Source: Methanobacteriota archaeon | GTDB lineage: Archaea; Thermoplasmatota; Poseidoniia; Poseidoniales; Thalassarchaeaceae | DNA length: 64,000 bases | Direction: 5' to 3' | Assembly: GCA_004195615.1 (NCBI GenBank) | Contig: PSPW01000001.1 | Span: 82,881 to 146,880 of the forward strand | Shown here: positions 6,592 to 34,891 of the stretch, one piece after another | How the letters are laid out: every line of letters starts with the position of its first letter | Numbering within the stretch: the stretch's first letter is position 1 | The notes under the pieces: generated by a model | Seen by the model: the letters and a program-made list of their open reading frames with translations, nothing else | What the model was told of the DNA's origin: nothing | The model's database searches: none | Program-made: the position numbers and the translations under genes

Positions 6592-7005
6592 TTATTTCGG
6601 CTTGAAGCGCTCCACGGCGGCGAACCCAGCGAAGAATCCAAGGCCAAAGGTTCCCATCTCTGATATTGATACTAGGATTGACTGGCTCTGAGCAGTGGCA
6701 TCGATGCCGATGTCAACCATCCCCAATGTAATCCTCTCCCAGTCAACAGCTACTATTCCTCTCGACTCGAGCCACTTTAACAGGGCGAATTCAATCAGGA
6801 TGAACCACTTCAGCAAATTGGTCGCCATTTTGAAGACCAGCCCGGTGACTGCCCCCACGATGAGCCCCTGGAAGGCAGCAACACCCACCTCGCCAAGGAA
6901 ACCTTCCCATAGGTCCGAGGCCGCAGACACGCTCCCCGAGAGAGGCAGCGCATTATAGGTCCCTTCTATGACAAAGGCCGCCCATGGTAGTGTAATGAGA
7001 GCCAT
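6592..7005 (-). CDS. Hypothetical membrane protein
   Basis: Three to four hydrophobic segments. Located in the low-GC island. Confidence 0.4.
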   Translation of the reverse strand: MALITLPWAAFVIEGTYNALPLSGSVSAASDLWEGFLGEVGVAAFQGLIVGAVTGLVFKMATNLLKWFILIEFALLKWLESRGIVAVDWERITLGMVDIGIDATAQSQSILVSISEMGTFGLGFFAGFAAVERFKPK

Positions 7006-7057
7006 GGATCGTTACATTTCTAATGTGACCATAATAGAACTAGGGGCATTCGATTTT

Positions 7058-8350: not shown

Positions 8351-8607
8351 CGACAACCCTCTCATTAAACAAGACGAAATGCAGTATCACGCAGGAGCCA
8401 GTACAACCATTCGACTCATGCATCTCCTAAAATCCCACCGTGGCACCAATAGGTATCCATCGACCTAATTCCTACTCCTCACCATAATGCTTGCATCACC
8501 TTAGGTAGCGTGATGAATGCCTACGAAAATCTCTATTGGTTTGTTGCGCATTGATGTGAAATCGGTGCTACCAAGCCAGTAATAACTTCGTCACTTAACG
8601 GTATACC

Positions 8608-9573
8608 GTGGAGTTCTACACTGGAGCATGCATGGTTTGCATCGGCGTCTATCTTTTTTGGGAACCAAGCTATGGAAGAAAGCCTACTCCGTCATCGGAA
8701 TCGGCGACGTCTAGAGCAAAGGATTCTGGGGCACTAAGTCAGACAGTACGTCAGGTGGCACGGATGACGATTAGGCCAACCTTCCTCCCCACCAGAGGGC
8801 TTCGAATCTACAGGGCCTTCGCATTTATCGGAGCTTTTTTTGGTTTCGTGGCCTCTAAATTGGTAATTTCTAATCCTTACATTTCTAACGAAGTCTCTCC
8901 GAGTGTTATTCTGTGGATATGTGTGGCGATTGGCTCATTCCTTGGTTACATTTTACCTCGAGTTGCTGAGAACTACATAGTGGTCCTAGGTCCTCCGGTC
9001 ACAGTAGTATTGACTTACGAATATCTGTTGTACGAGAGAGGTATCGATTTGCTAGAATTAGTTGTGGAAATCCCCTTTATTCCGGAAATCTCCCATTCTC
9101 TTCTTTCCGGTTTCTTTCTGGTCTCGACAACTTTCCTCACTTTGACCTTCAGGATGTACTTGAGACAGGCCATCCCAATCCTCATGTCTGGGTTATTGTC
9201 TGGGGGGCTGATTGGTAATGGAGTCTCCATAATCCAATCTAGGTCATTTCCACTATCTTCAGCAGAAATTGAATTTCATATCTCCGCCATAGTCGCAATG
9301 TGCAGCATCACTTCCCAGATTTACGTCAGATATTATCGGAGGGAGAGGGGTATCAAGAAGCAGAAGGCGGAAGACCGAGAAAGGCGACTAGTCAAGAGGT
9401 CGGGGGACGTTGTGATATTGAGATGCCCTTCTTGCAACAAAGAGGCCCAGCACGTAGTTGTGACTAGGAAAGTGACGGAGAGGGGAGTGGAGTTGATGGT
9501 GAATTGTAGGTGGTTGAATCAATTTGACGAGGTGTGCAATTTCCACCACACGGTGATTGAATCGACTGGCTGA
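8608..9573 (+). CDS. Hypothetical polytopic membrane protein with a C-terminal C4-type zinc-ribbon
   Basis: Five to six TM segments, then a basic linker (RRERGIKKQKAEDRERR) and CPSC...(20 aa)...CRW...C..H. The table start is GTG, so the real start may be an internal ATG. Confidence 0.45.
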   Translation: MEFYTGACMVCIGVYLFWEPSYGRKPTPSSESATSRAKDSGALSQTVRQVARMTIRPTFLPTRGLRIYRAFAFIGAFFGFVASKLVISNPYISNEVSPSVILWICVAIGSFLGYILPRVAENYIVVLGPPVTVVLTYEYLLYERGIDLLELVVEIPFIPEISHSLLSGFFLVSTTFLTLTFRMYLRQAIPILMSGLLSGGLIGNGVSIIQSRSFPLSSAEIEFHISAIVAMCSITSQIYVRYYRRERGIKKQKAEDRERRLVKRSGDVVILRCPSCNKEAQHVVVTRKVTERGVELMVNCRWLNQFDEVCNFHHTVIESTG

Positions 9574-9595
9574 ATGGGCGTGGTCGCAATGCCGT

Positions 9596-10348
9596 TCAGA
9601 ATACACCGGAGTTCTGCTGCATCCTAGCGTACCATACGGACACGCCGAGGTGGCTCTCTACAATGTCGAACCCATTGAGGTCCTGCATCGAACGGAGGAT
9701 CCCAAAGTTGGCGAAATCTGCGCCGTTCGGCTCTTTGCCGCCAAAGAAGTCACCCCGTATTCCCTCGGACATGAGGTCCAGTTGGTGCTTGAGGTTCTCG
9801 CGTGGAGGGAGTTCGAACATTTTCGCTCGGCTCTTCCCCACCATGCGCATGATGAATCCTCCTAACCACTTGTTAATCAGGCGACTTCCGAACGAAAATT
9901 TGTCGACTCTGGTGACGTAGTCGAGGGCTTGGACAGAGGTCCTGTACGAGGTGTATATCACTGCTACGATTGACTTCCCTAGGACGTTGTTTGAGAAATC
10001 CATCCACTTGTCCTGCTCCAGGTCCTCTCCCATTCGCGGGAATGCCCCGGTGCCTTTCGAGTCGATGTAGTGTAGGATGTGGTTCGAGTCGTTCACCTGA
10101 GTTCCGTCGACATCGACGAACACGGGCACCTTCCCCCAATCGGACCACTTCAGTTGCGTCTTGAAGGTGGGGTCGACCTCGACCTTAGAGAACTCAATCC
10201 CCCTAGATCCCAGTAGTGCCTTAATCTTGAAGCAGAACGGGCAGGTCTCGAAGCAATACATCGTCGGGAGGCCGCCAACAACCCTCTCCGGGACCAGTTC
10301 ATCCTGCACACCCGAGGGTGTCTCCTTCGCTTCGGGGTCGCTTGTCAT
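9596..10348 (-). CDS. Glutaredoxin-2-like / GST-fold thiol transferase (N-terminal CPFC active site)
   Basis: MYCFETCPFCFKIKALL resembles the GrxB N-terminus (YIYDHCPFCVKAR). The length fits a GST fold and the start is ATG. Confidence 0.6.
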   Translation of the reverse strand: MTSDPEAKETPSGVQDELVPERVVGGLPTMYCFETCPFCFKIKALLGSRGIEFSKVEVDPTFKTQLKWSDWGKVPVFVDVDGTQVNDSNHILHYIDSKGTGAFPRMGEDLEQDKWMDFSNNVLGKSIVAVIYTSYRTSVQALDYVTRVDKFSFGSRLINKWLGGFIMRMVGKSRAKMFELPPRENLKHQLDLMSEGIRGDFFGGKEPNGADFANFGILRSMQDLNGFDIVESHLGVSVWYARMQQNSGVF

Positions 10349-17541: not shown

Positions 17542-18495
17542 ATGCAGGACCCACAGGACCTCTCTGAAGGCGGGTTCGGGCAGATTACCTACCCATCCTC
17601 CAGCCCCTTCGAGATCCACCACATCCTCTGCAAGATGGACGAGGCAGTCGAGCACCCCGTGTTCGGCTCCCTTCTGGTCCCAGAGGAGCCTAGCGAGGGA
17701 CCGATGCCATGCGTTGTCGCCGTCCATGGCAGCCTCAACTGGCGCGGGCACCACCACGAGCACATCGTGCGCTGGCTGGATGCCGGGATCTGCGTGTTCA
17801 GAGTCCACTCCTTTGACTCCAGATTGGTGTACTCGGTAGTCGAGGACCAGATGCAGGTCACCCACGCGATGATTCTGGCCGACTGCTTCCAGGCGCTGAG
17901 GATGCTCTCCACCCATCCGGCGATAGACGAGGGCAGGATCGGGATAGCCGGATGGAGCCTCGGCGGGACCGTGGCGCTCTACTCCGCATGGGAGCCGATA
18001 GCCGAGTCGCTGGCCCCGGCGGGAGAGAGGTTCGCAGCGCACCTGCCGTTCTACCCCGCTGCCCACATGCGGACGGAGGACCCGCGATGGTCCGACAGGC
18101 CGATACTGGCACTCCATGGGAGCGCTGACGACTGGGTCCCGCTGAAGCTCCTCGAGGGACTCATCGAGGAAATCTCCCCGCATGGCGTCGACATCAGGGT
18201 GCACGTCTACGACGGGGCCCCTCACTCCTTCGACTCCATCGATCCCCTGGACTTCGACCCGCGGGCCATCAGGCTGGACGACCACAGGACGGTGACTATC
18301 GACTCGGAGGGGAACATGTGGGGGGAGATCGAGCCAGGAGTGATAATGCCCCTGAACGAACCAGCCGAGAGGCTGGCTGCCTTCCAGGCAGTGAGCAACC
18401 TCGGAGTGCACAAGGGAGTGGACTGGGAGGCGAGGAAGCACTCACTGGACCTCGCTGTGGAGTTCCTTGAAGAGACCCTGTGTCGAGGGGGCTAG
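17542..18495 (+). CDS. Alpha/beta hydrolase (dienelactone hydrolase / prolyl-oligopeptidase-like)
   Basis: Nucleophile elbow GIAGWSLGG and downstream D and H consistent with a catalytic triad (GSADDW...APHSF). Confidence 0.65.
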   Translation: MQDPQDLSEGGFGQITYPSSSPFEIHHILCKMDEAVEHPVFGSLLVPEEPSEGPMPCVVAVHGSLNWRGHHHEHIVRWLDAGICVFRVHSFDSRLVYSVVEDQMQVTHAMILADCFQALRMLSTHPAIDEGRIGIAGWSLGGTVALYSAWEPIAESLAPAGERFAAHLPFYPAAHMRTEDPRWSDRPILALHGSADDWVPLKLLEGLIEEISPHGVDIRVHVYDGAPHSFDSIDPLDFDPRAIRLDDHRTVTIDSEGNMWGEIEPGVIMPLNEPAERLAAFQAVSNLGVHKGVDWEARKHSLDLAVEFLEETLCRGG

Positions 18496-18555
18496 CGGCC
18501 CTTGAGGTCATTTCGTCAAGGTAGGCTTTTATCCGCCTCTCTAGGGCAACGGACG

Positions 18556-21500
18556 ATGAGGCGCACAGCAGTATTACTAGTAATACTGATGCTGACAGCG
18601 ATTCCTGCTTCGATGAGTCAGGATTTCCGACTGGCCGCCATCCCATCCCAGATGAGCACTGGATCGGGGGCGAACTGCCCCAACCAGACCCATTCGGGGG
18701 ATGCCTTCTACGCAGACGGATCGACTGGAAACGACTCTTGGAATGGAACCCAGGACTGCCCGACCGCCTCCATCCAGGCCGCTGTCGACCTGGCTTCCGA
18801 GAACGGCACGGTGATCGTCAGAGAGGGTGTCTACCACGAGGTCGTCACGTTGGACCAGCAGGGAATGAGGCTGAGGGTAGCCGATGGAGAGAGAGTCATC
18901 CTAGATGGCAGCCGAAGCGTTACTGGCAATCTCGGGGGCTCATGGTCGGTCCACGACTCCTCGTCGACTGAGGGGATCGTCTGGAAGGCGGACCTCACCC
19001 AGGACGCATGGCAGCTCTTCGTGGACTACGAGGAGGAGATGCCAGCGAGGTGGCCCAATGCGAACTTCTCCGACGGGACCGCCCTGGACGACGACGAGTA
19101 CTGGGCCCACGGAAGCGTGAACGTTGATGACTACGAGACGAACGAGACCGCAGCCTGCAACGAGGGGATGTCAAAGTACCAGAGTGGCAACAAGTACTAC
19201 TGCCTCAACTACCTCAATGGCGAGCTGGAGGACGACAACTCATCCTACGCAGGGCACAACGGCCTAATCGACAGCGGCGTGAACGCTACTGACGCGATTG
19301 CCGTCCTGAACATCGGCTCCTTCAGGACGTGGAGCCGAAACGTGACTTCACACAACACCAGCAACGGCTCCTTCAACTTCGAAGAGGTACCCAGTGACGA
19401 GTGGAAGTACAAGCACCACATGTACTTCCTGACACAGAAGCTCGAGCTGCTCGACGTGCCTGGCGAGTGGTTCTTCGACCACGAGTCGTCGGCCAACACC
19501 GTCTACTACATGCCGAGGGACGGCAGCGACCCCAACGACCTAGACATCAGGATGAAGACCCAGCCGTACGCCATACTGTGCTCGGACGACGATGGGGTGG
19601 TGGTCGAGGGCTTCGACTACTTCGCCACCACCTTCAGCCTCGATGACTGCGACGGCTCGGAGATCAGGAACTCCACTCTACTCTACCCCAGCACCTCGAA
19701 GAGGTCTCTCGGCCATGCGGGCGAGGACATGGACAACCGATACGTCTCCAGATTCGATGACTGCATCAGCTGCCTGGTGGACAGCTGTGACTTCCTTTAC
19801 ACCGATGGGGCGGCCTTCGAGGCCCACGGAGGGGCGTCAAGCTCCCAGAACAACACCATCAACAACTCCTACTTCTACCACATCGACTGGTCAGGTTCCG
19901 ACCAAAAGAGCCTGATGACGACCATCATGATGGACGGCACGACCAACCGGTTCACCAACAACACGATGCACAGGACGGGGACCTCCGCGACGATCAGGAT
20001 CGGCAACGCCCCCCAAATCATGTTCAACGAGATCTACGACACCGCCCACATCCAGTCAGACGGGACGGTCGTCCAGATGATGCAGGCAGAGCAGGAGAAC
20101 GCGACAGTCGCCTACAACTGGATCCACGACGTGCCCAAGTACGGCATCAGGATGGACGGGCCGTTCGGCGGTACTAACTCAGGCAGGAACGCGAGCGTGC
20201 ACCACAACGTGCTGTGGAACGTGAACGGCGCCATTGTTGTGAAGGGCGACTACCACAACGTGAGTAACAACACGGTCCTCCTGGGATCCGAGGGCGACAG
20301 GAACCACATCATAGTCCTCTACGACTCGACCGGGGGCAACGAGAACTCGACGATCATGTCCAACGCGGCAAACTCCATCAGCGGTCATCGGACAAACTCG
20401 AACCTCACCGACCCGATTCCCGTCAACTCGACGGCCATCGGCAACAACTGGAACGGATACGACCCCCAGAACACAGGTGAGAACGTCTCCGGAATGCTGG
20501 TCTCCCCCGAGACGAGCGACTTCAGGCCCGTGTTCGGGTCGGAGATAGGCCAGATGGGAGCGGGGGCGTACTCCAGCACCCAGAACGCTACCGTCCCAGC
20601 CGACCCGTCCTCCTTCGACCCATCGACCTACTACTGGCTGCCCGGGATCAAGAGGAACGTCTCGAGTCCCTATCAGAGGACGTCCTTCGACCTACCATGC
20701 CCGTCTGGCCAATATCGATCCGCCGCAGGAGCCTCCTGCGAAGCAGCCCCTGCCGGTCAGCACGTCCCACTCTGGGGGTCAAACTCTCCGACCGAGTGCA
20801 CGACTGGGACCTGGCAGGACGAGACAGGACAGTCCAGCTGCATCGAGGCCGATGCGGGTAACTACGTCGGCACCAACGGGTCGATGATTCAGATACAGTG
20901 CTCCACAGGTTCATGGCAGGACCAGCCCGGTCAGGCGAGCTGCATGAACGCGAGCGCCGGCTACTACGTGGACACCAACGAGTCGGCTACGCAGAACCAA
21001 TGTTCTCCGGGGACATTCCAGCCCCTCGCAGGGCAGACATCCTGCATAGAAGCGGATGCTGGTCACTACGTCGCCCAAGCACCTCTTGAATTCACCTCAA
21101 TCTCTGGAAAATGGGGGCACACTTGTGGAATTATGGTGGACGGAACCCTGTATTGCTGGGGGGACGGAGATTCTGGTCAAATCGGTGACGGGGGGCTGGA
21201 TGATCGTAGTTACGCCGTGGCGGTTGACTTGCCTCCGGGACGAGCCGCGATCTCGGTTTCAGCGGGTTACGCTCACTCGTGCGCCGTATTGGACAACCTC
21301 TCCGCATACTGCTGGGGGATGGGCGGATGGGGGCAGATGGGGCATGGTTCTTGGGATTCCAATCTTGTCCCGGGCCCAGTTTCACTCCCCTCGAACAAAA
21401 CTGTTAGCTCCGTAGTTGCGGGATACGACCACTCCTGCGCATTGATGAACGACTCCTCCCTATACTGTTGGGGAAAGAACGCTGTAGGCCAACTAGGCAA

Positions 21501-24500
21501 CGGTGATGCGACAGTAACCCACTCCTTCAGCCCAATCTTGATCATTGGTAGTTCAGTTGAGTTCGTATCAGCTGGGAATCAGCAAACCTGTGCAATATTG
21601 TCCAATGGGACAGCGTACTGCTGGGGAAGGAACGACTATGGGTCATTGGGCAATATCGAGCAGGGATGGAATGACGACTCGTACGAACCCTTGCAGGTTG
21701 ATGTCCCCCCTGGCAGGGAGGTCACGGTCATTTCTGCAGGAACATCATTACACAGTTGCGCGACTCTGGACAATGGTTCCGCATATTGTTGGGGTTACGG
21801 GAACGATGGGCAACTAGGAAACGCCTCTAGTTACGATACCACCAACTGTGCCGGATACTGGTGCACGTCGGGGCCTACTCCGGTTCAAGTCCTGTTGCCC
21901 CAAGGAAGCAACGCCACCTCGATCAAAACAGGGGGCTCTCACTCTTGTGCAACGCTGTCAAATTATTCCCTTTACTGCTGGGGGCACAATTGGTATGGAG
22001 AGGTCGGTGACGGAACTCAATCATCCAGACTGGTTCCCGTGCTAGCCTCTATCGTTCCCGAAGGAGGAATCTCAGACTTCTCTGCCGGGGGTGGCTATTC
22101 TTGTGTGGTGACTCATGATGACTCTGCATTCTGCTGGGGTGATGGTTCTCTTATGGGAAATGGTAGGCTCGGGATTGGTGAAATCAACGCAACCAATCAT
22201 CTCAATCTAGATCCATTGTTGGAAGTTCGGGGTCCTTATGTTCCCTTCATTAGCCAGACAGCCTGCTCCCTTGGTTCCTACCAGTCATCCACCGGCCAAT
22301 CATCTTGTGATGAAGCAGATGCGGGCCACTTTGTGAGCACGAACGGGTCGGCCACACAGACGCCCTGCGAACTGGGCACCTGGAACAACATGACCGGTCA
22401 AGTCTCCTGCACGAACGCGAGCGTCGGGCACTACGTCGATACCAACGGGTCCGCGACCCAGACCCCCTGCGGACTGGGCACTTGGAACAACATGACCGGT
22501 CAAGTCTCCTGCACGAACGCGAGCGTCGGGCACTACGTCGATACTAACGGGTCCGCGACCCAGACCCCCTGCGGACTGGGCACTTGGAACAACATGACCG
22601 GTCAGTCCAGCTGCACGAACGCGAGTGCCGGCTACTACGTGGACACGAATGGGTCCACCATGCAGACCCCCTGTGACGCGGGGACGTACAACCCGAGTAA
22701 CGGGTCCAACTCGTCTGCAGACTGCCTGACCACTCCTGTGGGCAACTACTCCGGAGCCGGAGCGGCCTCGCCGACACAGTGCTCACCAGGTACGTGGCAG
22801 AACCAGACGGGGCAGTCGAGTTGCATGAACGCCAGTGCTGGCCACTACGTGGACACCAACGGGTCGACTACGCAGACTCCCTGTGCTCCGGGCACATGGA
22901 ACAGCATAACCGGGCAGTCCAGCTGCATCCCGGCATCCCCCGGATACTACGTGGACACCAACGGATCTACCTCCCAAACTCCCTGCGATGCAGGGACGTA
23001 CAACCCCAACTCATCCTCCAACTCCTCCACAGACTGCCTGACCACTCCCGCTGGCAACTACTCCGGAGCCGGAGCGGCCTCGCCGACACAGTGCTCACCA
23101 GGTACGTGGCAGAACCAGACAGGGCAGTCCAGCTGCATCGATGCCAATCCCGGGCACTACGCATCGGGATACGGGAATACAAATGAGACCCAATGCGGGC
23201 TGGGCACTTGGACAGACCAGACGGGACAGAGCTCCTGCGCACCGGCATCCCCCGGATACTACGTGGACTCTAACGGGTCGACGACCCAGACCCCCTGTGA
23301 GTTGGGGACGTACAACCCTAATTCGGGGTCGAGCGATCCATCTGATTGCGTCCAAGCCAGTCCCGGCTACTACGTCGACCAGGAGGGGCAATCGAGCCAG
23401 ACCCCATGTTCCGCTGGCTCGTACAACAACATCACTGGGTCCACCACGTCGTCGGACTGCATCGATGCACAACCAGGATACTACATCGCCTATCCCGGAT
23501 CAACCTCACAGAGCCCCTGCCAGTTGGGGGAGTTCCAGCCATCGCCCGGTCAATCCTCGTGCATCGATGCCGATCCGGGCAACTATGTGGATTCGCTTGC
23601 CTCCACCAGCCAGACGGCCTGCTCCCCTGGCTCGTACCAGCCCAACTACGCGCAGACAGAATGCCTATCTGCAAATGTGGGGCACTACGTCGAGACCTCT
23701 GGATCTGCCAGCGAAACCCCCTGTGATGCGGGGACGTACAACACATTCACCGGATCGGTAGTCTCATCGGACTGCCTAGAAGCGGATCCGGGTTACTTCA
23801 CGGCCTCCTCGGGCTCATCCTCGCAGGTCGCTTGCTCGCCTGGTTCGTACCAGCCCAATCCGGGAGCGACCAGTTGCATCTACGCTACGCCGGGACATTT
23901 CGTCGACCAAGCAGCGGCGACTTCGGAGCAGAGCTGCCATCTCGGAGAGTACCAGCCCAGCACCGCTAGGCAGAGCTGCATGACTGCAGACATAGGGTAC
24001 TACGTGGACTCGATCGGCTCTTCCGGCCAGACGAAGTGTCTGCCAGGCAAGTACAACCCCGACGAGGGGGCCATGACGGTCGATGCATGCATAGATGCCG
24101 CGCCCGGATTCCACGTCCCGACGACCGCAACTGGTGTGAGCAGCCAGACTCCATGCTCGGCTGGGACTTACCAAGCCGCCTATGGGATGACGGAATGCAC
24201 CGAAGCCGAGGCGGGCTACTACGTAGACACGACTGAGGCCTCCTCTCCTACTCCCTGCTCCGCCGGTTCCTATCAGCCAAGCACCGGACAAGTGAGCTGC
24301 CTTGACGCGGGTGATGGGCACTACGTTGCCGGGACGGGGCAGTCCGAACACACGCCGTGTCCGATTGGGACCTACCAGCCCGACGTGGGCAAAATAATCT
24401 GCGAGGACGCGGATCCGGGTTACTTCGTTGGTGAGGAGGGCTCCACCACGCAGACTGGTTGCCATGCTGGGACCTACCAGCCCGGCCAAGCACAGGAAAG

Positions 24501-25992
24501 CTGCATCTCTACAGAGCCGGGGTATTACGTGACTGGGACGAAGGCCACCGAGAAGACCCCCTGCTCCCCAGGGAAATGGCAGAACCAGACCGGGATGACC
24601 ACCTGCAACAGCGCAGAGCCCGGATTCCATGCACCAAACCCGGGAGCGGATGATCAGACTCCCTGTCCGAGTGGGACGTTCCAGTCAGAGTTCGATAGTA
24701 TCGAGTGCGAGAGCGCCCAACCGGGATACGTCGTCAGCCTCGATGGCATGACGGTTTCGAGCCCGTGTCCCACAGGATCCTACCAGTCAGCAGGTGGTCA
24801 GACCAGTTGCACTGAGACGTCTCCGGGGTACTACGTGGACTCCCTTGGTTCCACCGAGCAGTTGTCATGCCAACCAGGGACATGGCAAGACCTCGGGGGC
24901 AAGTCTGGATGCCAGGACGCGCAACCTGGTTACTACGTCGATACCGAGGCTTCGATTGAACAGTCTATCTGCTTAGAGGGGACATACCAGCCGGAAACCG
25001 GCCAATCGGCATGCATAGTTGCACCCACTGGATTCTTCGTGGAGTCCCCGGGCTCATCGGTGCTAACGAAATGCTCCTCGGGACAGCACCAGCCCACCGA
25101 GGGCAGCACTTCCTGCGTGGACAAGCCGGTCAACCCGGTCCTGATAGGGGGTGGAGCTGCCGCCGTTATCATACTACTATTGGCCTCAGTGGTTGGCTTC
25201 AGGGCCTACAAGAGGAAGCAAGATGCGGAATTCGAGGCAATGATGTCAGAGGACCCGGAGGGGGTCGACGCGGAAGACGAGGCTCCCGTGGTAGCGGAGG
25301 AAGCCGAGCCAGTTGACTACAACTCCATGACCGTGCCCCAGCTCAAGGAATTGCTGCAAGAGCGTGACTTGACTGTTGGCGGAGTCAAGACCGAGCTCGT
25401 TTCCAGGCTCGAGGAGGACGATGTGCAGTTGGAGAAGTTCAAGGCGAGGCTTGGGCATGTGGAAGTGGCGGCAGATGTCGTGGAGGAAGATGATGAAGAT
25501 GACCTCCTAGAGGACCTGGAACTCGATGATGACGAGGATGATGAAGATGACCTCCTAGAGGACCTGGAACTCGATGATGACGAGGAGGATATCGATCTAG
25601 ACGAGGAGGATATCGATCTAGATGTTCCTGAGACAACTGAGGAGATTGAGACCACCGAGGTGGAGGGGGAAACCACCGAGGTAAGCGAGGAGATCAGCGA
25701 TGCTGAGTTCGAGGAGTTCGAGGAAGAGGTGACCGATACCCAGGTGGTTGCAGAGGCTCCGGTGGTTGCAGAGGCTCCGGTGGTTGCAGAGGCTCCGGTG
25801 GTTGCAGAGGCTCCGGTTGAGACCAGCGAGGAGATCAGCGATGCTGAGTTCGAGGAGTTCGACGAAGAGGTGGCGGTAGCAGAGACGCCGGTCGGGGCCA
25901 GCGAGGAGATCAGCGATGACGAGTTCGAGGAGTTCGACGAAGAGATCAGTGAGGAAGAGTTCGAGGAGTTCGAGGAGTTCGACGACGAATAG
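18556..25992 (+). CDS. Giant single-pass surface glycoprotein. The order is signal peptide, NxS/T-rich (possibly beta-helix-like) region, 7 RCC1-like repeats, about 30 ephrin-receptor-like Cys repeats, a TM helix, a cytoplasmic SAP motif, and a poly-acidic repeat tail.
   Basis: One ORF spans the whole region. Signal peptide MRRTAVLLVILMLTAIPASMSQ. Dozens of N-x-S/T sequons. Seven repeats of the form YCWG.N..GQLGNG. More than 30 repeats of the form C..G.Y....G...C..C..G.YV. TM helix VLIGGGAAAVIILLLASVVGF followed by YKRK. SAP-like TVPQLKELLQERDLTVGGVKTELVSRLEE. The tail has repeats DDEDDLLEDLELDDDED x2, APVVAE x4 and SEEISDAEFEEFDEE x3. The table start (18502) is TTG; ATG 18556 begins the signal peptide. 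Confidence 0.85.
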   Translation: MRRTAVLLVILMLTAIPASMSQDFRLAAIPSQMSTGSGANCPNQTHSGDAFYADGSTGNDSWNGTQDCPTASIQAAVDLASENGTVIVREGVYHEVVTLDQQGMRLRVADGERVILDGSRSVTGNLGGSWSVHDSSSTEGIVWKADLTQDAWQLFVDYEEEMPARWPNANFSDGTALDDDEYWAHGSVNVDDYETNETAACNEGMSKYQSGNKYYCLNYLNGELEDDNSSYAGHNGLIDSGVNATDAIAVLNIGSFRTWSRNVTSHNTSNGSFNFEEVPSDEWKYKHHMYFLTQKLELLDVPGEWFFDHESSANTVYYMPRDGSDPNDLDIRMKTQPYAILCSDDDGVVVEGFDYFATTFSLDDCDGSEIRNSTLLYPSTSKRSLGHAGEDMDNRYVSRFDDCISCLVDSCDFLYTDGAAFEAHGGASSSQNNTINNSYFYHIDWSGSDQKSLMTTIMMDGTTNRFTNNTMHRTGTSATIRIGNAPQIMFNEIYDTAHIQSDGTVVQMMQAEQENATVAYNWIHDVPKYGIRMDGPFGGTNSGRNASVHHNVLWNVNGAIVVKGDYHNVSNNTVLLGSEGDRNHIIVLYDSTGGNENSTIMSNAANSISGHRTNSNLTDPIPVNSTAIGNNWNGYDPQNTGENVSGMLVSPETSDFRPVFGSEIGQMGAGAYSSTQNATVPADPSSFDPSTYYWLPGIKRNVSSPYQRTSFDLPCPSGQYRSAAGASCEAAPAGQHVPLWGSNSPTECTTGTWQDETGQSSCIEADAGNYVGTNGSMIQIQCSTGSWQDQPGQASCMNASAGYYVDTNESATQNQCSPGTFQPLAGQTSCIEADAGHYVAQAPLEFTSISGKWGHTCGIMVDGTLYCWGDGDSGQIGDGGLDDRSYAVAVDLPPGRAAISVSAGYAHSCAVLDNLSAYCWGMGGWGQMGHGSWDSNLVPGPVSLPSNKTVSSVVAGYDHSCALMNDSSLYCWGKNAVGQLGNGDATVTHSFSPILIIGSSVEFVSAGNQQTCAILSNGTAYCWGRNDYGSLGNIEQGWNDDSYEPLQVDVPPGREVTVISAGTSLHSCATLDNGSAYCWGYGNDGQLGNASSYDTTNCAGYWCTSGPTPVQVLLPQGSNATSIKTGGSHSCATLSNYSLYCWGHNWYGEVGDGTQSSRLVPVLASIVPEGGISDFSAGGGYSCVVTHDDSAFCWGDGSLMGNGRLGIGEINATNHLNLDPLLEVRGPYVPFISQTACSLGSYQSSTGQSSCDEADAGHFVSTNGSATQTPCELGTWNNMTGQVSCTNASVGHYVDTNGSATQTPCGLGTWNNMTGQVSCTNASVGHYVDTNGSATQTPCGLGTWNNMTGQSSCTNASAGYYVDTNGSTMQTPCDAGTYNPSNGSNSSADCLTTPVGNYSGAGAASPTQCSPGTWQNQTGQSSCMNASAGHYVDTNGSTTQTPCAPGTWNSITGQSSCIPASPGYYVDTNGSTSQTPCDAGTYNPNSSSNSSTDCLTTPAGNYSGAGAASPTQCSPGTWQNQTGQSSCIDANPGHYASGYGNTNETQCGLGTWTDQTGQSSCAPASPGYYVDSNGSTTQTPCELGTYNPNSGSSDPSDCVQASPGYYVDQEGQSSQTPCSAGSYNNITGSTTSSDCIDAQPGYYIAYPGSTSQSPCQLGEFQPSPGQSSCIDADPGNYVDSLASTSQTACSPGSYQPNYAQTECLSANVGHYVETSGSASETPCDAGTYNTFTGSVVSSDCLEADPGYFTASSGSSSQVACSPGSYQPNPGATSCIYATPGHFVDQAAATSEQSCHLGEYQPSTARQSCMTADIGYYVDSIGSSGQTKCLPGKYNPDEGAMTVDACIDAAPGFHVPTTATGVSSQTPCSAGTYQAAYGMTECTEAEAGYYVDTTEASSPTPCSAGSYQPSTGQVSCLDAGDGHYVAGTGQSEHTPCPIGTYQPDVGKIICEDADPGYFVGEEGSTTQTGCHAGTYQPGQAQESCISTEPGYYVTGTKATEKTPCSPGKWQNQTGMTTCNSAEPGFHAPNPGADDQTPCPSGTFQSEFDSIECESAQPGYVVSLDGMTVSSPCPTGSYQSAGGQTSCTETSPGYYVDSLGSTEQLSCQPGTWQDLGGKSGCQDAQPGYYVDTEASIEQSICLEGTYQPETGQSACIVAPTGFFVESPGSSVLTKCSSGQHQPTEGSTSCVDKPVNPVLIGGGAAAVIILLLASVVGFRAYKRKQDAEFEAMMSEDPEGVDAEDEAPVVAEEAEPVDYNSMTVPQLKELLQERDLTVGGVKTELVSRLEEDDVQLEKFKARLGHVEVAADVVEEDDEDDLLEDLELDDDEDDEDDLLEDLELDDDEEDIDLDEEDIDLDVPETTEEIETTEVEGETTEVSEEISDAEFEEFEEEVTDTQVVAEAPVVAEAPVVAEAPVVAEAPVETSEEISDAEFEEFDEEVAVAETPVGASEEISDDEFEEFDEEISEEEFEEFEEFDDE
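22381..22686 (+). repeat. Three tandem, near-identical 102-bp (34-aa) in-frame repeats inside the giant surface-protein gene. Copies 2 and 3 differ by about 1 nt.
   Basis: The unit tggaacaacatgaccggtcaagtctcctgcacgaacgcgagcgtcgggcactacgtcgataccaacgggtccgcgacccagaccccctgcggactgggcact recurs at about 22381, 22483 and 22585. A second long copy pair (ggcaactactccggagccggagcggcctcgccgacacagtgctcaccaggtacgtggcagaaccagac) lies about 312 bp apart at about 22741 and 23053. Confidence 0.85.
25480..25989 (+). repeat. In-frame low-complexity acidic repeat block (the C-terminal tail of the giant protein)
   Basis: Short tandem DNA repeats: gatgatgaagatgacctcctagaggacctggaactcgatgatgacgagga x2, gaggatatcgatctagacgag x2, gttgcagaggctccggtg x4, agcgaggagatcagcgatg.tgagttcgaggagttcga x3. 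Confidence 0.8.
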
Positions 25993-29380: not shown

Positions 29381-30001
29381 TCACTCTTTGACACCAGCTT
29401 CGACCTCTGGTGCGCCCCCTTCCGAGAATTCAGAAATCGTCATCTGCGCTTCGGGAGCTAGGGATGCGGCGAGCTCGGCGCTGGTGAGCCCGAGCTTGGT
29501 GGCCTCCGACCTAAACCAAGCGCGGACCTTTCTGAACTCGACCTCTGGGCAACCAAAGTACTCGGCGAATCTCCGAGTGGTGGTGAGTCGTCGGGTGAGT
29601 CCGTCCCTCCTCCTGTCGATGAGGCCCATCGAAGCTAGATCCCGAACGTGGTCGTAGGCCTTCTGGCCGAGCATGTCCTTCAGCTGGGATTGCTGCATTG
29701 GCTGGTGGTAGGCAATCAGAGCTGCTGCTGGTAGTAGCCTTGGAGGTATGTCCGCCCTGAATGTCTCTGGGAGGAAGGAGGATAGTTCGGGCCTGACCTC
29801 GAATATCCACCTGCCTGAAACGTCCGTAAGTTGCAGGGCGCTGTCCTCTCTCTGCTCGAATCTCTTCCTCAGGTTGGATAGGCCGACGTGGATGACCCCT
29901 TTCGGTTCCCCGAGCATCTCGGAGAGCTCCTCGAGGGACATCGAGCGTCCCGCTCCGAACAGGATGGCTTCGAGTACTGTGGTCAGTGGCGGCTCAGACA
30001 T
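29381..30001 (-). CDS. scpB: Segregation and condensation protein B (ScpB)
   Basis: N-terminal LEAILFGAGRSMSLEELSEML wHTH, typical of ScpB. Located downstream of scpA and smc. Confidence 0.85.
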   Translation of the reverse strand: MSEPPLTTVLEAILFGAGRSMSLEELSEMLGEPKGVIHVGLSNLRKRFEQREDSALQLTDVSGRWIFEVRPELSSFLPETFRADIPPRLLPAAALIAYHQPMQQSQLKDMLGQKAYDHVRDLASMGLIDRRRDGLTRRLTTTRRFAEYFGCPEVEFRKVRAWFRSEATKLGLTSAELAASLAPEAQMTISEFSEGGAPEVEAGVKE

Positions 30002-30986
30002 TTGAGACCTCCAACGAATCGGACTTCGGGTGTAGCTTATGGGTCAGTTCCTCATAGTCCTCTGATCCTTCCCAGAGGTCACCGAGGACTATCCTGCCGT
30101 TGTAACCCCCCTCCTGGTCGAGTGAGATGTAGCCCCTGTTTGTTAGGAACAGGGTGGATACGAATGCGGTGACTTGCGATTCTGTCTTGGTCTCCTGATC
30201 GTCCAGTCCCGCTTGCGAGTTCCTGTTCAGTTCGTCTGCGACCTCTCCGAGTGCCACCGATTCGGATGACTGTGCCCTAGATTTCAGAGCATCCCACGTC
30301 CTCTTCAAGTCTCCTTCGAGATCCTCTACGTGGAAGCTCCCGCTGAATCGTGCCCTTGCCCTGTCGTGTGCCTCCCTCCTCTCCTTGGCTATTCTCTCCC
30401 TGGTCCTCTGCTCCTCGGCAATTCTACTCGCGTCCTTGAGGCCGAGGAGGAGCTCACCGAGGGTGACTGGCCGGCCTTCTTCCCGGTGTATGCGCCCCTC
30501 GAACATCGAAGGTAGAGTCTCGTCGGCTGCTCCGGTCATGACGCCCACTGAGAAGTTGTAGTCAGCGTCATCGAATTCGACCTCCCAGCCGTCATCGAAG
30601 TCCCAATCGACTTCCTCCTCGAAATCCATAGCCCTCTCCTGACGCTCTATCAGGGAGATCGCCTGACCGCGTAGGATGGACCACGCCATCCTGATTATGC
30701 GACCGCACGATGGGAGGTCAATGTTCTCGGCCTTCTCGATTCGCTCGTTGAACATCTCGATGAAACTGGATAGGTCGACGTCCCAGGGGTCCAAGTCGCT
30801 CGATTGGAACATCTGGAACACCAGGGCAACCGAACGGTCGAATGGGTCGATGAGGAATTGATGCTCCGCCTCGTCCAGGGTCGACAGCTCCATCAGCCTG
30901 TCCAGGAATTTACTGGCCTCTAGGTTGGGCTGGCCCTCAAGCAGACGGAGGACAACATCATCCCTCATCTGCTCTCCGAAAATCAC
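29994..30986 (-). CDS. scpA: Segregation and condensation protein A (ScpA kleisin)
   Basis: Placed between smc and scpB on the same strand. Kleisin-like length and acidic composition. GTG start overlapping the smc TAG stop by 1 nt, and an 8-nt overlap with scpB. Confidence 0.75.
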   Translation of the reverse strand: MIFGEQMRDDVVLRLLEGQPNLEASKFLDRLMELSTLDEAEHQFLIDPFDRSVALVFQMFQSSDLDPWDVDLSSFIEMFNERIEKAENIDLPSCGRIIRMAWSILRGQAISLIERQERAMDFEEEVDWDFDDGWEVEFDDADYNFSVGVMTGAADETLPSMFEGRIHREEGRPVTLGELLLGLKDASRIAEEQRTRERIAKERREAHDRARARFSGSFHVEDLEGDLKRTWDALKSRAQSSESVALGEVADELNRNSQAGLDDQETKTESQVTAFVSTLFLTNRGYISLDQEGGYNGRIVLGDLWEGSEDYEELTHKLHPKSDSLEVSNV

Positions 30987-33900
30987 TATGCATCCTCCCT
31001 GTATTCGATCTCAGGGATTGAGGGGGCTTCCTCCTGCTCCTCAGTTTGTGCTGTTTCAGACTCCTCGATGTCCTCGGTGACGTCCTCAGTGCGCCCCCTG
31101 AGGCTCTGGAGACCCTCTCCCTCTGGCTCGGGAATTCCGTCTTCGGGCACGTCGACCCCTGCCCTGTCGGCTAGCCCACCGAGGCTCGAGGGGGCTGGCA
31201 GCGGTTCTGGGGTCTTTGGCATGTCCGCAGGGGATGGTAGCTCCGGCATCGCCTCCTTCTCCGTCTCGGAGGCGATCCTCGCCTTCTCCTCGGCCTCAAT
31301 CTCCTCGCTGAGGTCCAATGCGGCAGCCCTGTCGAAGTCGGTTATCCTCTGGCTGCATCCGTTGCCTGCGTGGGTGATTCCTATGTGGTGGTCGGCCAGC
31401 GTGAGGCTGACCTTCCTCAGTGTGACCATGATGAATTGTGCCATGCCGCTCCTCATCCTGCAGAGGGCTGCGATCTTCTCGGAGTTGAATGGGTCGAGGT
31501 TCTGGTCCACCTCGTCGAAGTAGTAGAACGGGCTGGGTTCGTAGTCCTGTATCGCGAATATCAGTGCGAGCGCTGCCATCGACTTCTCGCCGCCGGATAG
31601 GGCGGCCCTCCGAGTGTTCTGGCTCTTGCCCGGTGGGACGCATGCCATCTCCAAGCCTCCGTCGAAAGGGCTGTCTATGTTCTCGAGCTTCAGTTCGCCG
31701 CTGCCTGTGGGCTGCAATATCTCGTACACCCTCCGGAAGTTGTTGTTGACGTGCTCGAAGACGTTGAGCAGCCGCGTCTTTCGCTCGTCCTCCAGTTGGT
31801 CTGCTATCGTGGAGAGCTCGTCCCTGCGCTTCCTCAGGAGATTGCCGTCTGCAATCAGGTCCGTGATGCGCGCGGCGGCGGCGTCATACTGCTCTATGGC
31901 GAGCATGTTAACGTCCCCGAGGGCGCGGAGGCGGCGCTCGAGCCCCTGCACGCTCCGCTCCGCCTCCACAACTGTTGGCAGTTGCGCGTCTTCTGGTGGG
32001 ATTGGTATGCCGGCCGCCCCTAGTTCGGCCACAATCTCGTCCAGCGCCTCGCGCCTCTGCTTGATTTGTACGCTAAGTTCCTCCAATCGCCCGGATATGC
32101 TCTGCTTCTCCTGGGAGATCCTCTCTAAGTGGGCCCTTAGGCTGGCCCTCTCCTCGATGATCTCGTCCCTCTTGTCGTTCAGGAGCTTCTGCTCCTCGTC
32201 GAACTGGGAGGCCTGCTCTCTGAGTTCGAGGAGCATCGACTCGGATTCTCCTATGCTCGACTTGAGTTCGCCGATCTCCTTCTCTGCCCTGGAGATCGAG
32301 TCGTTCTGAGACTTGACCTGTCTGTCCAGCTCTGCCACCCTGTCTATCAGAATCTTCAGCTGCTGGGTCGATGTCTCGATTGATGCCTCGGACATGACGC
32401 GAGTCCTCTCTGCCTCGGTTCTGACCCTCTCTGCCTCTCTGAGCTTGACAGACAGGTAGTCGGGAGTGTGGTTCTGGAGGTCTTCTGCGGCCTTGGACCG
32501 GGTGGCCGTCGCCTCCTCGAGGGAGACTCGGGCATTCTCGCATATCGCTGAGAGTCGGGACTTCTCGGACTCGCATTCGTCGAGCTCCTTGTTGGCTGCT
32601 TTGAGCTTGGTTCTGATCTCGCTGACCGCCTTCTCGGCCCTGCTCATGTCGGCCTTCCAATTCCTGATCCTGACCGAGTGGTCATCGTTGTCGAGACCGT
32701 GTATCCTGTCCCTGAGCTCTTGCTGGCTCCTGCGGAGCTCCCTCAGAGCGCCGTCAACAGTGAAGAATAGGAGGTCCGCCTCTTGGACGCCCATCTCCAT
32801 CCTGTCTATTCCGGAACTCCCGGCTCCCGAACCCTCGAATCTCGGGCGGCCCTTCTTCGAAGAGGAGCCGCCAGTCATGGCGCCTGAGCTCTCGATGACC
32901 GCCCCGTCGAGGGTGACCATTCGCACTCCACCCATGTTCTCCCTCGCAACGTCCATGGAGTCAACGACCAGCGTGTTCCTCCCTGCATAACGAACCGCGG
33001 TCTCGACGCTTTGGTCGAATTCTAGCAGATCGTGGACGAATCCTACCACTCCGGGGTTTCTCGCCACTAGGAGCGTCCTTCCCTGGGGACGGGAGACTGA
33101 GAGTTTGTTGAGGGGGAGGAAGGTTGCCCTGCCGCCGCCATTCTTGCGTAGCCAGGTGATGCACTTTGATGCTACGTGGTCGGAGGTCACGACGATGCTC
33201 CTGAGACCGCCTCCGAAGGCGAATGACAGTGCCTCCTCGTGAGAGGGGTCCTTCGGAGACGCCAGTTCCCCGAGGGTCCCGAGGATTCCGTGGATTTCCC
33301 CGCTCTCCCTGAGCCGGGATAGTGCTGCTAGGGTGTGTGCCGAACCCGGAGTGCTTGACCTAGCCTCCATTCTGGCCTTGGCCTTGGCGAGGCCCATCTC
33401 CGCGTTCCTGAGCTTGGACTCGGCCCTGTCCCGATCATCGACGAGGGATCTCTCCTGCTTCTGCAGGCTCATCAGCTCCTTGGCCATGGACTCTCTGTTG
33501 ATGTCGGGACTGGAGTCCTCGAGGTCCTCCCCTACGAGCGCGTGGTCGTCCCTCTCGAGCTCGGCGGTCTCGAATGCCTGCTCTATGTCGACCAGGTTCT
33601 CAGATGCTATCTGGGATCTCTGGTTCGCCCGGTCGTAATCCAGTTGGGCTTGTGAGTATGCTGTGCTGGCGGACTGCTCGTCCTCAGTGGCCTTGCCTAG
33701 AAGCCTGTTGAGGTCGCGGCCGAGCTTGTCTCCGGACTGGATGGCCTTCCTCGCCTCTTCCTCGTCCTCAGCGGCCTTCTTCAGGGCCGCCTTAGAGTCT
33801 GAGACCCTTTGGTGGAGGTCTGTGATGCTCTGCTCTGATTGTATGCGGGCTTTGTCGGCCCCTTCCCTCTCACGTATCAGAATTTCGATCTCCTCCTCCG

Positions 33901-34891
33901 AGCTCTCGATGGCCCTCTTGTGGTCGCCGATGCGGTCGGAAGCGGTCTCCAGATCGATCTCGTGTTGCCTAATTTTGTCTATGATCTCCTTTGCATCCTC
34001 GCCCATGGCCACTTCGAGATCCCTTCTAAGTTGGACAAGTTCCTTGTCGTATCCGTCCAGTCTCTGACTCGATTCCAGCATCTCCTTGGAGAGGTCTTTC
34101 TCCTTTGTGACGTAGTTGGACCTCTCCTCCGACAGTAGTGATACCTCTCCCTGTCTGTTCCTGTGTTTGGATTGCTCTAGAGTCAATCGGGCTAGGTCCG
34201 CCTCTCCCTTCAGTTCCCTGAACTTCAGAGCCTGCTCTCGTTCCTTCTCGAGCTCCGTGAGTCGTCCCTTCTGGTCGGCCTCGAAGATGTCGATCGTCTC
34301 TATGCTGTTCTCGACGTGCTTGCGCTGCGTGTTCGCCTTTCGTATCTCGTCGTCGTAGGCAGTCACCCCGGCGACCTGCTCCAGTACCCCCCTCCTCTTG
34401 TGGGGAGTCATGGTGGCTAGGTTAGTGACGTCGCCCTGCAGCACTATGTTGTAGCCGTCCCCTCTCAGTCCGGCCTCCGAGAGAATCCTTCTCATCTCGG
34501 TGGCCGAGGATGGATTGTCGTTGATCCTGAACGAGGAGACTGGGTTCCCCTTCCTGTTGAGTTTGACCGACCTCGTGAAGGAGACCTCGTCCGAGTCGGA
34601 GCGGAGCCTCCTCTTGCCCCCGACCTCCGGGGTGTTGCTGAATACCAGGGTCGCCGACATGTGTTTTGCCGGGCTACCGGACTTTCCTCCGTTGAAGATG
34701 AGCTCAGAGACATTGGAGGCCCGGAGCGATCGTGTAGACTTGGGTCCGAGGACGAATCCAATGGCATCTCCGCAGTTTGATTTACCGCTGCCGTTGGGGC
34801 CGGTGATCGCTGTGAAGCCCTCCTCGAACGGAATGATCGACTCGCCGCCGAACGACTTGAAATTCTCAACCTCAATCCTGACTAGATGCAT
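30986..34891 (-). CDS. smc: Chromosome segregation ATPase SMC, with an acidic/Pro-rich C-terminal extension of about 120 aa
   Basis: Walker A FTAITGPNGSGKSNCGDAIGFVLG, a long coiled-coil, a hinge, ABC signature LSGGEKSMAALALIFA and Walker B YYFDEVDQNLD. 1301 aa. Confidence 0.95.
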   Translation of the reverse strand: MHLVRIEVENFKSFGGESIIPFEEGFTAITGPNGSGKSNCGDAIGFVLGPKSTRSLRASNVSELIFNGGKSGSPAKHMSATLVFSNTPEVGGKRRLRSDSDEVSFTRSVKLNRKGNPVSSFRINDNPSSATEMRRILSEAGLRGDGYNIVLQGDVTNLATMTPHKRRGVLEQVAGVTAYDDEIRKANTQRKHVENSIETIDIFEADQKGRLTELEKEREQALKFRELKGEADLARLTLEQSKHRNRQGEVSLLSEERSNYVTKEKDLSKEMLESSQRLDGYDKELVQLRRDLEVAMGEDAKEIIDKIRQHEIDLETASDRIGDHKRAIESSEEEIEILIREREGADKARIQSEQSITDLHQRVSDSKAALKKAAEDEEEARKAIQSGDKLGRDLNRLLGKATEDEQSASTAYSQAQLDYDRANQRSQIASENLVDIEQAFETAELERDDHALVGEDLEDSSPDINRESMAKELMSLQKQERSLVDDRDRAESKLRNAEMGLAKAKARMEARSSTPGSAHTLAALSRLRESGEIHGILGTLGELASPKDPSHEEALSFAFGGGLRSIVVTSDHVASKCITWLRKNGGGRATFLPLNKLSVSRPQGRTLLVARNPGVVGFVHDLLEFDQSVETAVRYAGRNTLVVDSMDVARENMGGVRMVTLDGAVIESSGAMTGGSSSKKGRPRFEGSGAGSSGIDRMEMGVQEADLLFFTVDGALRELRRSQQELRDRIHGLDNDDHSVRIRNWKADMSRAEKAVSEIRTKLKAANKELDECESEKSRLSAICENARVSLEEATATRSKAAEDLQNHTPDYLSVKLREAERVRTEAERTRVMSEASIETSTQQLKILIDRVAELDRQVKSQNDSISRAEKEIGELKSSIGESESMLLELREQASQFDEEQKLLNDKRDEIIEERASLRAHLERISQEKQSISGRLEELSVQIKQRREALDEIVAELGAAGIPIPPEDAQLPTVVEAERSVQGLERRLRALGDVNMLAIEQYDAAAARITDLIADGNLLRKRRDELSTIADQLEDERKTRLLNVFEHVNNNFRRVYEILQPTGSGELKLENIDSPFDGGLEMACVPPGKSQNTRRAALSGGEKSMAALALIFAIQDYEPSPFYYFDEVDQNLDPFNSEKIAALCRMRSGMAQFIMVTLRKVSLTLADHHIGITHAGNGCSQRITDFDRAAALDLSEEIEAEEKARIASETEKEAMPELPSPADMPKTPEPLPAPSSLGGLADRAGVDVPEDGIPEPEGEGLQSLRGRTEDVTEDIEESETAQTEEQEEAPSIPEIEYREDA

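Follow-up and report, generated by a model that had tools for sequence, protein, structure and literature searches.

Some archaeal extracellular proteins are very large, glycosylated and rich in repeats, and carry functional heads on a long stalk, as do halomucin and the tetrabrachion of Staphylothermus. In a 64-kb stretch of marine archaeal DNA (contig PSPW01000001.1, positions 82,881 to 146,880; hereafter the window, in which all coordinates below are given), we analysed a single giant gene whose predicted product joins a beta-helix head, an RCC1-like propeller, a rod of ephrin-receptor-like cysteine units, a transmembrane (TM) helix and a cytoplasmic tail with a SAP domain. Unlike halomucin and tetrabrachion, which are coiled-coil or mucin-like and have no cytoplasmic SAP tail, this protein has a beta-hairpin cysteine rod and a SAP tail. 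Each of its modules belongs to a known family or has a known lookalike, and giant modular surface proteins are known in archaea and bacteria. The combination of beta-helix head, RCC1, ephrin-like rod, TM helix and SAP tail, however, appears to be undescribed. Database searches returned no named or characterised homologue, and literature searches on Marine Group II (MGII)/Poseidoniales, SAP, Ephrin_rec_like and RCC1 topics found no paper describing the protein. What is new is the complete architecture in MGII, the evidence for a system of plug-in modules on a seemingly cysteine-depleted ephrin-like rod and, above all, a surface protein whose cytoplasmic side carries a conserved SAP domain.

The described relatives of the RCC1 and SAP modules stand in various settings. 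Streptomyces BLIP-II is a secreted prokaryotic RCC1-like protein, and the unnamed secreted RCC1 proteins of Poseidoniales, Verrucomicrobia and Chloroflexi are likewise extracellular; in Poseidoniales, the head described here frequently occurs fused to RCC1. The setting in the window is not that of a Ran-GEF (guanine nucleotide exchange factor): the putative propeller interrupts a cysteine-repeat rod midway, and some orthologues have it while others do not. The SAP domains of eukaryotic proteins such as yeast Tho1/human SARNP and SAF-A/hnRNP U, the latter followed by an acidic stretch, resemble the archaeal one in sequence, but the archaeal domain is net acidic and would lie on the cytoplasmic tail of a single-pass surface protein. 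The LEM/HeH proteins of the inner nuclear membrane (Heh1/Heh2, MAN1, emerin) show a helix-extended-loop-helix DNA/chromatin-binding module to the genome compartment. Their likeness to the archaeal protein is an architectural analogy only: the archaeal tail matched Pfam SAP with no LEM/HeH model reported in that search, no separate comparison with LEM/HeH having been made, and both the topology and the extracellular part differ.

The frame from 18502 to 25992 (+) is free of stops. We take the ATG at 18556 as the start because the N-terminus of a near-orthologue, P0001 (MKRIAVLLVILM...), has the same signal-peptide start and because a TATA-like box lies ~26 nt upstream, and the resulting open reading frame (ORF) encodes 2,478 aa and ends with the TAG stop at 25990-25992. 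A spacing of ~26 nt between TATA box and ATG is that expected for leaderless archaeal mRNA, and the box suggests transcription from a separate promoter of this gene, giving an mRNA with a short leader or none. A scan for bacterial-type promoters and terminators found none, as expected in an archaeon. An earlier note, made from the letters of the window alone, had described one gene of about 2,480 aa with a signal peptide and these modules; the uninterrupted frame agrees, a Pfam profile search recovers RCC1, Ephrin_rec_like and SAP and upholds the identity and order of the modules, and the N-terminal hydropathy peak and the start shared with P0001 support the signal peptide. From N- to C-terminus the product consists of the signal peptide, the head, 4 ephrin-like units, the RCC1 module, 28 further ephrin-like units, the TM helix and the SAP/acidic tail, with the following features:

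18527 to 18532, + strand: TATA-like box TTTTAT, ~26 nt 5' of the ATG, read from the sequence.
18556 to 18621, + strand: signal peptide (MRRTAVLLVILMLTAIPASMSQ), which takes up residues 1-22 and has its hydropathy peak over residues 3-22; P0001 starts alike.
18622 to 20655, + strand: GH141/GH120-like head of 678 aa, spanning residues 23-700 and predicted as a right-handed parallel beta-helix into which a further domain is inserted, from structure prediction, Foldseek and profiles.
20698 to 21105, + strand: four ephrin-receptor-like cysteine units, residues 715-850, from the unit parse and Pfam Ephrin_rec_like.
21106 to 22263, + strand: RCC1-like module of seven blades, residues 851-1236, between two ephrin-like units, from Pfam, motifs and third-position G+C.
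22264 to 25125, + strand: stalk of 28 ephrin-receptor-like units (the last incomplete), residues 1237-2190, from the unit parse, structure prediction and Foldseek.
25138 to 25200, + strand: single TM helix, residues 2195-2215 (VLIGGGAAAVIILLLASVVGF), the top Kyte-Doolittle window of the protein (2.67).
25201 to 25251, + strand: juxtamembrane segment RAYKRKQDAEFEAMMSE, residues 2216-2232, a positive-inside signal, from an alignment of eight orthologous tails.
25315 to 25470, + strand: SAP domain, residues 2254-2288, and the conserved following helix to ~2305 (...LEEDDVQLEKFKARLGHVE), from Pfam and the Tho1 match.
25471 to 25989, + strand: acidic repeat tail, residues 2306-2478, ending in ..SEEEFEEFEEFDDE, from Tandem Repeats Finder (TRF), composition and alignment.

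The topology signals point to a type-I single-pass membrane protein, N-out/C-in. Hydropathy picks out just two segments, the signal peptide and the glycine-rich TM segment, which opens with GGGAAA and is followed by RAYKRKQ and a 262-aa tail in place of a short basic stub. All 62 N-x-S/T sequons and all 89 cysteines are located between the signal peptide and the TM helix, with none in the tail. The head holds 24 sequons and the 28-unit stalk 25. In comparisons with composition-preserving shuffles, the ectodomain segments contain 24 sequons against 10.0±2.7, 9 against 3.6±1.7 and 25 against 10.7±2.8, an enrichment of 2.3-2.5 times in every segment, and sequon density is ~10 times that of neighbouring cytoplasmic proteins. 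These results suggest that the ectodomain is N-glycosylated. Both the single TM helix with N-out/C-in orientation and the sequon-rich N-terminal region had been read from the letters beforehand, and the present analysis bears them out.

The head was modelled with AlphaFold2 (AF2) from a 41-sequence alignment (pLDDT 76.7, pTM 0.81) as almost entirely beta. In a Foldseek search of the PDB, the top match is Bacteroides thetaiotaomicron BT_1002 of glycoside hydrolase (GH) family 141 (5mqp; 3e-17, TM-score ~0.5), followed by GH120 XylC (3vst; 2e-11), and lower ranks hold GH110 enzymes, a capsule lyase, polysaccharide lyase family 6 (PL6) alginate lyases, phage tailspikes and PfbA (4mr0). The model and these matches support the guess of the earlier note that the N-terminal region may be a beta-helix; BT_1002 and XylC are likewise right-handed beta-helices with an inserted domain. 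The head-family profile retrieves 3vst (3.8e-17, at the XylC N-terminus), 9rx2 (6e-11) and 5mqp (1e-8, at the GH141 insertion region) from the PDB; homology to XylC is clear for the N-terminal cap, and the inserted domain has GH141_M and 9rx2 as its matches. Identity to the GH141/GH120 structures in Foldseek is, however, merely ~13-14%, and Pfam GH141_M is sub-threshold on the head (21 bits against a cut-off of 27). For these two reasons the head is described as GH141/GH120-like and is not filed as a member of either family, and it further differs from both families in its display on a membrane-anchored archaeal stalk. A mapping of the XylC catalytic residues through a weak third HMM segment was dropped, the segment not being significant.

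The head belongs to an uncharacterised family (its own matches are DUF1565 and Pel9A-like) with 141 database relatives, which are found in Poseidoniales and in one type IX secretion system (T9SS) protein labelled Neomarinimicrobiota; the top matches are labelled Ca. Thalassarchaeum. In 41 archaeal and bacterial members (42-88% identity to the query), the blocks YPSTSKR, TDG.A.E, IDWS..D, YNWIHD..KYGIR.DG and HHNV.W are invariant, with many D, E, H, K and R residues, and D395, E400, D422 and D427 are invariant acidic residues of the family. Across the related loci in GTDB species genomes, head identity is 80-92%. The same head occurs elsewhere in marine proteins fused to a GH13 amylase, a Cu/Zn superoxide dismutase (SOD), a cupredoxin, a cyclophilin, RCC1 or a T9SS sorting domain, a pattern that we read as the behaviour of a secreted glycan-active module. 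To the earlier note the whole protein looked like an adhesin or receptor; the head, being GH141/GH120-like, may instead make the protein a displayed enzyme or lectin.

The rod as assembled comprises 4 + 28 = 32 ephrin-like units of ~34 aa, each with two cysteines (C-x13-C-x19), where about 30 ephrin/GCC2-GCC3-type repeats had been counted before. Pfam Ephrin_rec_like (PF07699) matches in 13 stretches (4.7e-62, 206 bits against 23.1). Canonical eukaryotic ephrin-receptor-like repeats carry C-x2-C pairs, and relative to them the archaeal units look cysteine-depleted. An AF2 model of four stalk units, built from an alignment of in-register windows, shows a chain of short beta-hairpins (pLDDT 92.6). 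Its best Foldseek match is the Chlamydomonas mastigoneme protein Mst1 (TM-score up to 0.83), followed by Elapor1, the cysteine-rich domains (CRDs) of the TNFR family (CD40, 4-1BB, TNFR2) and EphA4; a sequence search of the PDB with the stalk gave no match, so that all these matches come from the fold search. The archaeal repeats, like those of Mst1, are predicted to form a long extracellular rod. Unlike Mst1, Elapor1, EphA4, CD40 and 4-1BB, the archaeal protein has two cysteines per 34-aa unit in 32 units, with no kinase, TNF-binding or filament-assembly context. CRDs of the TNFR/EGFR kind measure ~0.5 Å per residue, and we estimate the length of the 32-unit rod at ~50-60 nm. TRF also reports a 102-bp tandem repeat at 22342-22673 (3.3 copies, 90% identity).

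The RCC1 module is well recognised by Pfam, with WD40_RLD (PF25390) at 1.9e-62 (212.1 bits against a cut-off of 150), RCC1 (PF00415) at 2e-46 (156.7 bits against 21.7) and RCC1_2 (PF13540) at 2e-39 in 7 stretches (132.7 bits against 22). Seven [YF]CWG motifs, at residues 866, 918, 970, 1021, 1077, 1140 and 1192, mark tandem blades of ~50-60 aa with the conserved C-W-G ... G-Q-L-G pattern, and the seven blades claimed earlier are therefore corroborated. The module boundaries fall exactly between two complete ephrin-like units. G+C at third codon positions (GC3) is 0.547 in the module, compared with 0.853 in the head, 0.68-0.72 in the ephrin-like blocks and 0.61-0.83 in the neighbouring genes. 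Moreover, RCC1 is absent from P0001, which carries every other module, and from P0058 (head 86% identical); it is present in L006, P0109 and P0003/L024, with several copies in L024. The module is thus polymorphic among orthologues, and in our reading it is an exchangeable binding bead of recent insertion. The exact combination of RCC1, ephrin-like repeats, TM helix and SAP is one allele state. The question whether the architecture is conserved in related genomes thus has a divided answer: head, stalk, TM helix and SAP tail recur together in P0001, whereas RCC1 comes and goes. The description of the RCC1 and ephrin repeats as eukaryote-signature modules does not stand, as both are stock modules of secreted proteins of Poseidoniales and bacteria, combined variously with the same head.

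The helix-loop-helix of the tail, called SAP-like before, matches Pfam SAP (PF02037) at 4.6e-11 (42.5 bits against 23.9) over profile positions 1-35 of 37, and the yeast Tho1 SAP structures 1h1j and 4uzw at E = 1.6e-8 over 39 aligned residues with ~60% identity and the pattern L..L...L..G.K..L..RL. In the alignment of eight orthologous tails, the juxtamembrane RAYKRKQ(E/D)AEFEAMM is essentially invariant and the SAP domain and the subsequent LEEDD.QL.KFKARLGH are kept, while the length of the acidic repeats differs between orthologues. The terminal motif (S/T)E(E/D)EF(D/E)EF(E/D)(E/D)FD is kept in all four sequences that reach the C-terminus (L001, L002, L018 and P0175). This pattern would reflect selection on three separate cytoplasmic elements. 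The tail (residues 2217-2478) is 43% D+E, and TRF finds arrays with periods of 48, 21, 18, 75, 36 and 9 bp in its acidic part, in agreement with the poly-acidic repeat tail reported in the earlier note.

To see how common a TM helix before a SAP domain is, we consider an exhaustive HMMER search with a TM + SAP query against 1.84 billion representatives, which gave 377 matches at E ≤ 1e-3. Few of these span TM helix and SAP, and every one that does is a fragment of the giant-protein orthologue group; among the best 146, which were inspected for an upstream TM segment, a TM helix directly upstream of SAP likewise occurs in such fragments only. The remaining matches have SAP alone, often in tandem, and the named ones are eukaryotic (Pythium, the diatom Cylindrotheca, an insect). 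Three apparent stand-alone TM-SAP proteins (P0045, P0047 and P0050) were rejected as shortened gene calls: on the contig of P0047 the frame stays open 5' of the called gene, crossing ephrin-like repeats until the contig begins, and P0045 and P0050 lie on contigs of 650 and 1,900 bp that end in adaptor-derived sequence. Because other head-family members (P0006 and P0023) end in short tails without SAP, the SAP tail is an addition of narrow distribution, probably acquired horizontally.

The closest non-orthologous relative (67% identity) of the SAP domain at 25315-25419 is in a 138-aa protein encoded at 9001-9417 of L023, a 17-kb Tara contig (ERZ907618 k127_89212). Its gene lies directly 3' of an 830-aa Phage_tube_2 (tail-tube-like) gene, and the contig also has a Peptidase_S78 prohead protease and an HK97-type capsid protein ~33% identical to Haloarcula tailed-virus capsids. 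Judged by these genes, L023 is an archaeal tailed virus, and it may be a Poseidoniales virus with a host-like SAP domain. A search of GenBank phages with the SAP query gave just one weak match, in a Pseudomonas phage. In addition, P0290, a protein of 252 aa from the TM + SAP search with HEAT-repeat-like motifs, has a C-terminal SAP after a DGDGxxD acidic linker. The same end is seen in several short fragments, so further marine prokaryotic proteins may have SAP domains.

Taken as a whole, the protein reads as a surface glycoprotein on a stalk, anchored in the membrane, with a head that would bind and probably cleave a glycan and a tail SAP domain that would engage nucleic acid or an associated partner, an account to which we give somewhat more than even weight. 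A Sec-type signal peptide would export a heavily N-glycosylated ectodomain, and the distal beta-helix head would bind, and probably cleave, a polysaccharide or glycoconjugate, acting as an enzyme or as a lectin. The optional RCC1 beta-propeller below it may serve as a second ligand-binding bead. Both would be held off the cell by a rigid rod in which disulfides staple 32 beta-hairpin units of TNFR/ephrin-receptor type, and the C-terminal TM helix would anchor this rod. Inside the cell, the helix-extended-loop-helix SAP domain would most likely contact nucleoid DNA, RNA or a nucleic-acid-associated partner; on account of the SAP homology, nucleic acid is the leading candidate, and the coupling to the nucleoid suggested in the earlier note is plausible. 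The acidic repeats and the acidic-aromatic end could modulate SAP or recruit a basic partner. HMGB1 has an acidic tail that acts as an intramolecular competitor and hnRNP U has the SAP-acidic arrangement, and the acidic region here might compete with SAP in the same way. Several observations weigh against this account. With GH141_M below its cut-off and no GH141/GH120 catalytic residue mapped, the head could be a domain that binds without catalysis. In the SAP core, 4 basic residues stand against 9 acidic ones, which, like the acidic composition of the whole tail, is unfavourable for stable DNA binding; any binding of nucleic acid by the tail would therefore more likely be weak, regulated or indirect. 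Furthermore, the genes around the giant gene include no evident partner, and the host organism is uncultured. A more far-reaching version, which we hold to be decidedly unlikely, makes the protein a glycan-sensing or glycan-processing surface protein coupled to the nucleoid or RNA through a horizontally acquired eukaryote-type SAP domain, an analogue of HeH/LEM tethers or a membrane-tethered signal relay, with the viral SAP possibly interfering with the same target.

The protein could alternatively be a pure adhesin for particles, algal surfaces or cells, in which head and RCC1 would be non-catalytic binders, with the rod serving only for reach and the tail only as an anchor or stabiliser. Beta-helix adhesins do exist, PfbA being among the fold matches of the head, and the sub-threshold GH141_M as well as the strain-to-strain differences in repeat number and RCC1 presence, which are typical for adhesins, fit this explanation. 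Adhesion functions and genes of MGII are also stressed in PMC6461757, the sole relevant general statement found in the literature searches. The top fold and sequence matches of the head are, however, glycoside hydrolases and lyases, its relatives are fused to a GH13 amylase, and the strongly conserved SAP domain and C-terminal motif would be left unexplained; we consider a pure adhesin fairly unlikely. The top structural match of the stalk, a mastigoneme filament protein, suggests instead a structural "hair" or glycocalyx, mastigoneme-like or S-layer-like, that would form a glycosylated coat for the boundary layer or a shield against viruses or grazers, with the heads as interchangeable decorations. 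The very high sequon density, the cassette-like variability and the repeat-driven length change are consistent with such a coat, but there is no sign of a self-assembly domain, and the NCBIfam models, which include S-layer and C-terminal sorting signals, gave zero matches to the protein, which thus shows none of the archaeal C-terminal sorting signals recognised there. The high identity of the head among orthologues and its family-wide invariant motifs favour a specific ligand over decoration, and the likelihood of a purely structural role is low. It is also conceivable that a ligand triggers cleavage in or near the glycine-rich TM helix (regulated intramembrane proteolysis) and that the freed SAP tail acts on DNA or RNA. 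What speaks for such signalling is architecture only, namely an extracellular sensor, a TM helix starting with GGGAAA, an invariant juxtamembrane segment and a domain of nucleic-acid-binding type. The locus has no linked protease gene, the acidity of the tail is extreme, SAP domains are to our knowledge not sequence-specific regulators, and we know of no archaeal precedent for signalling by a cleavable SAP tail; all this makes the explanation very unlikely.

Lastly, an assembly chimera or pseudogene could have arisen by misjoining of repeat-containing genes through the ephrin-like repeats. Nearly all public assemblies do break within the gene. Genome contigs with the 5' part (L005, L006 and L008-L016) stop ~1.7-2.8 kb into it, mostly in the first ephrin-like repeats or at the RCC1 start, and the 3' part lies on separate contigs that start inside the repeats (L003, L004 and L007, with 3.0-3.6 kb, and L018). 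The GC3 of RCC1 differs from that of its surroundings, and long-read relatives are full of frameshifts. In one of them, L024 (9390-23600, Pilon-polished), the gene is at least 14 kb long and frameshifted, with ephrin-like matches that hop between frames, and P0002, P0003 and P0005 have P/R-rich stretches that resemble out-of-frame translation of the repeats; database domain architectures for the head/ephrin/RCC1 family are therefore unreliable. Against a chimera, the window has a single frame without a stop over 7.4 kb, and junctions are reproduced elsewhere. L006, a contig of an independent metagenome-assembled genome (MAG), follows residues 1-939 colinearly (79% identity) and thus shows the signal peptide, head, four units and RCC1 start in the same succession; P0001/L002 join head, stalk, TM helix and SAP tail in one ORF with the same synteny; and L001, L003, L004, L007 and L018 join stalk to tail. 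The order in L024 is head, ephrin-like repeats, RCC1, ephrin-like repeats, more RCC1-like segments and again ephrin-like repeats, so that RCC1 followed by ephrin-like repeats recurs there, and in the window the insertion sits exactly on unit boundaries. The chance that the earlier-described architecture is several genes or a misassembly is in our view negligible, and we reject it. Only P0001 (1,868 aa) and the window hold an uninterrupted head-to-tail ORF. The full architecture is seldom seen because short-read assemblies almost always break inside the repeats.

The surrounding genes indicate that the window derives from an archaeal chromosome of the MGIIb lineage (Ca. Poseidoniales, Thalassarchaeaceae-like), in line with the archaeal origin proposed before. 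This assignment is based on an intron-containing tRNA, the RFC small subunit, GatD, SMC, ScpB, a DRG-type GTPase, TatC and 17 related loci in GTDB species genomes, all from Ca. Poseidoniales, Thalassarchaeaceae or "Methanobacteriota" marine MAGs or single-amplified genomes. In two metagenomic contigs, the gene order matches that of the window, with short-chain dehydrogenase/reductase, luciferase-like protein, asparaginase II, aldehyde dehydrogenase, KAS III and the giant gene, followed by a cytidylyltransferase, a hypothetical gene, DRG, TatC, ScpB, an ORF, SMC and MCM/MeaB. Given this conserved order, the giant gene is a conserved chromosomal gene of the MGIIb lineage. No paralogue of any of its modules was found elsewhere in the window.

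Between KAS III and the giant gene, the window has a dienelactone-hydrolase-family gene (17542-18495, +); the syntenic contig L002 lacks it there and has the giant gene right after KAS III. Downstream, ScpB, a 330-aa ORF in the expected ScpA position (no Pfam match) and SMC occupy 29381-34891 (-), 3.4-9 kb from the giant gene. A functional link of the giant gene to SMC-ScpB was considered and rejected, since these genes lie on the opposite strand behind four intervening genes, and their proximity is probably a coincidence. Next to them, at 35032-38352 (-), lies the gene for an IcmF-like protein of 1,106 aa in which a B12-binding domain, a MeaB GTPase and methylmalonyl-CoA mutase are fused; it is kept in the syntenic L001. 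An amino-acid permease with a C-terminal EF-hand pair (48698-50431, +) adjoins a Ca2+-dependent protein resembling phosphatidylinositol-specific phospholipase C (47058-48167, -), and these two would be further eukaryote-looking modules in the region. The tRNA at 53352-53477 (+) was found with Rfam (126 nt, 58.7 bits) and must hold an intron; ARAGORN reports 0 tRNAs in the window. G+C is 0.43-0.47 at 4001-10000, which includes a DEAD-box helicase gene (7058-8365), against 0.51-0.63 elsewhere in the window, and this part may be an island or a set of genes of different composition.

Poseidoniales-type MGII are the most abundant planktonic archaea. The intact copy of the gene in the window offers a concrete model for the display of glycan-active heads on long rods, in an architecture that has hitherto been effectively invisible. 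Recombination of the head and rod with RCC1, amylase, SOD, cupredoxin and other modules would amount to a "plug-and-play" surface system, which may bear on the processing of high-molecular-weight organic matter by MGII. The SAP tail represents a rare eukaryote-type nuclear domain recruited to an archaeal membrane protein. If it does bind nucleic acid, it would provide a link between cell surface and genome of a kind not described for archaea.

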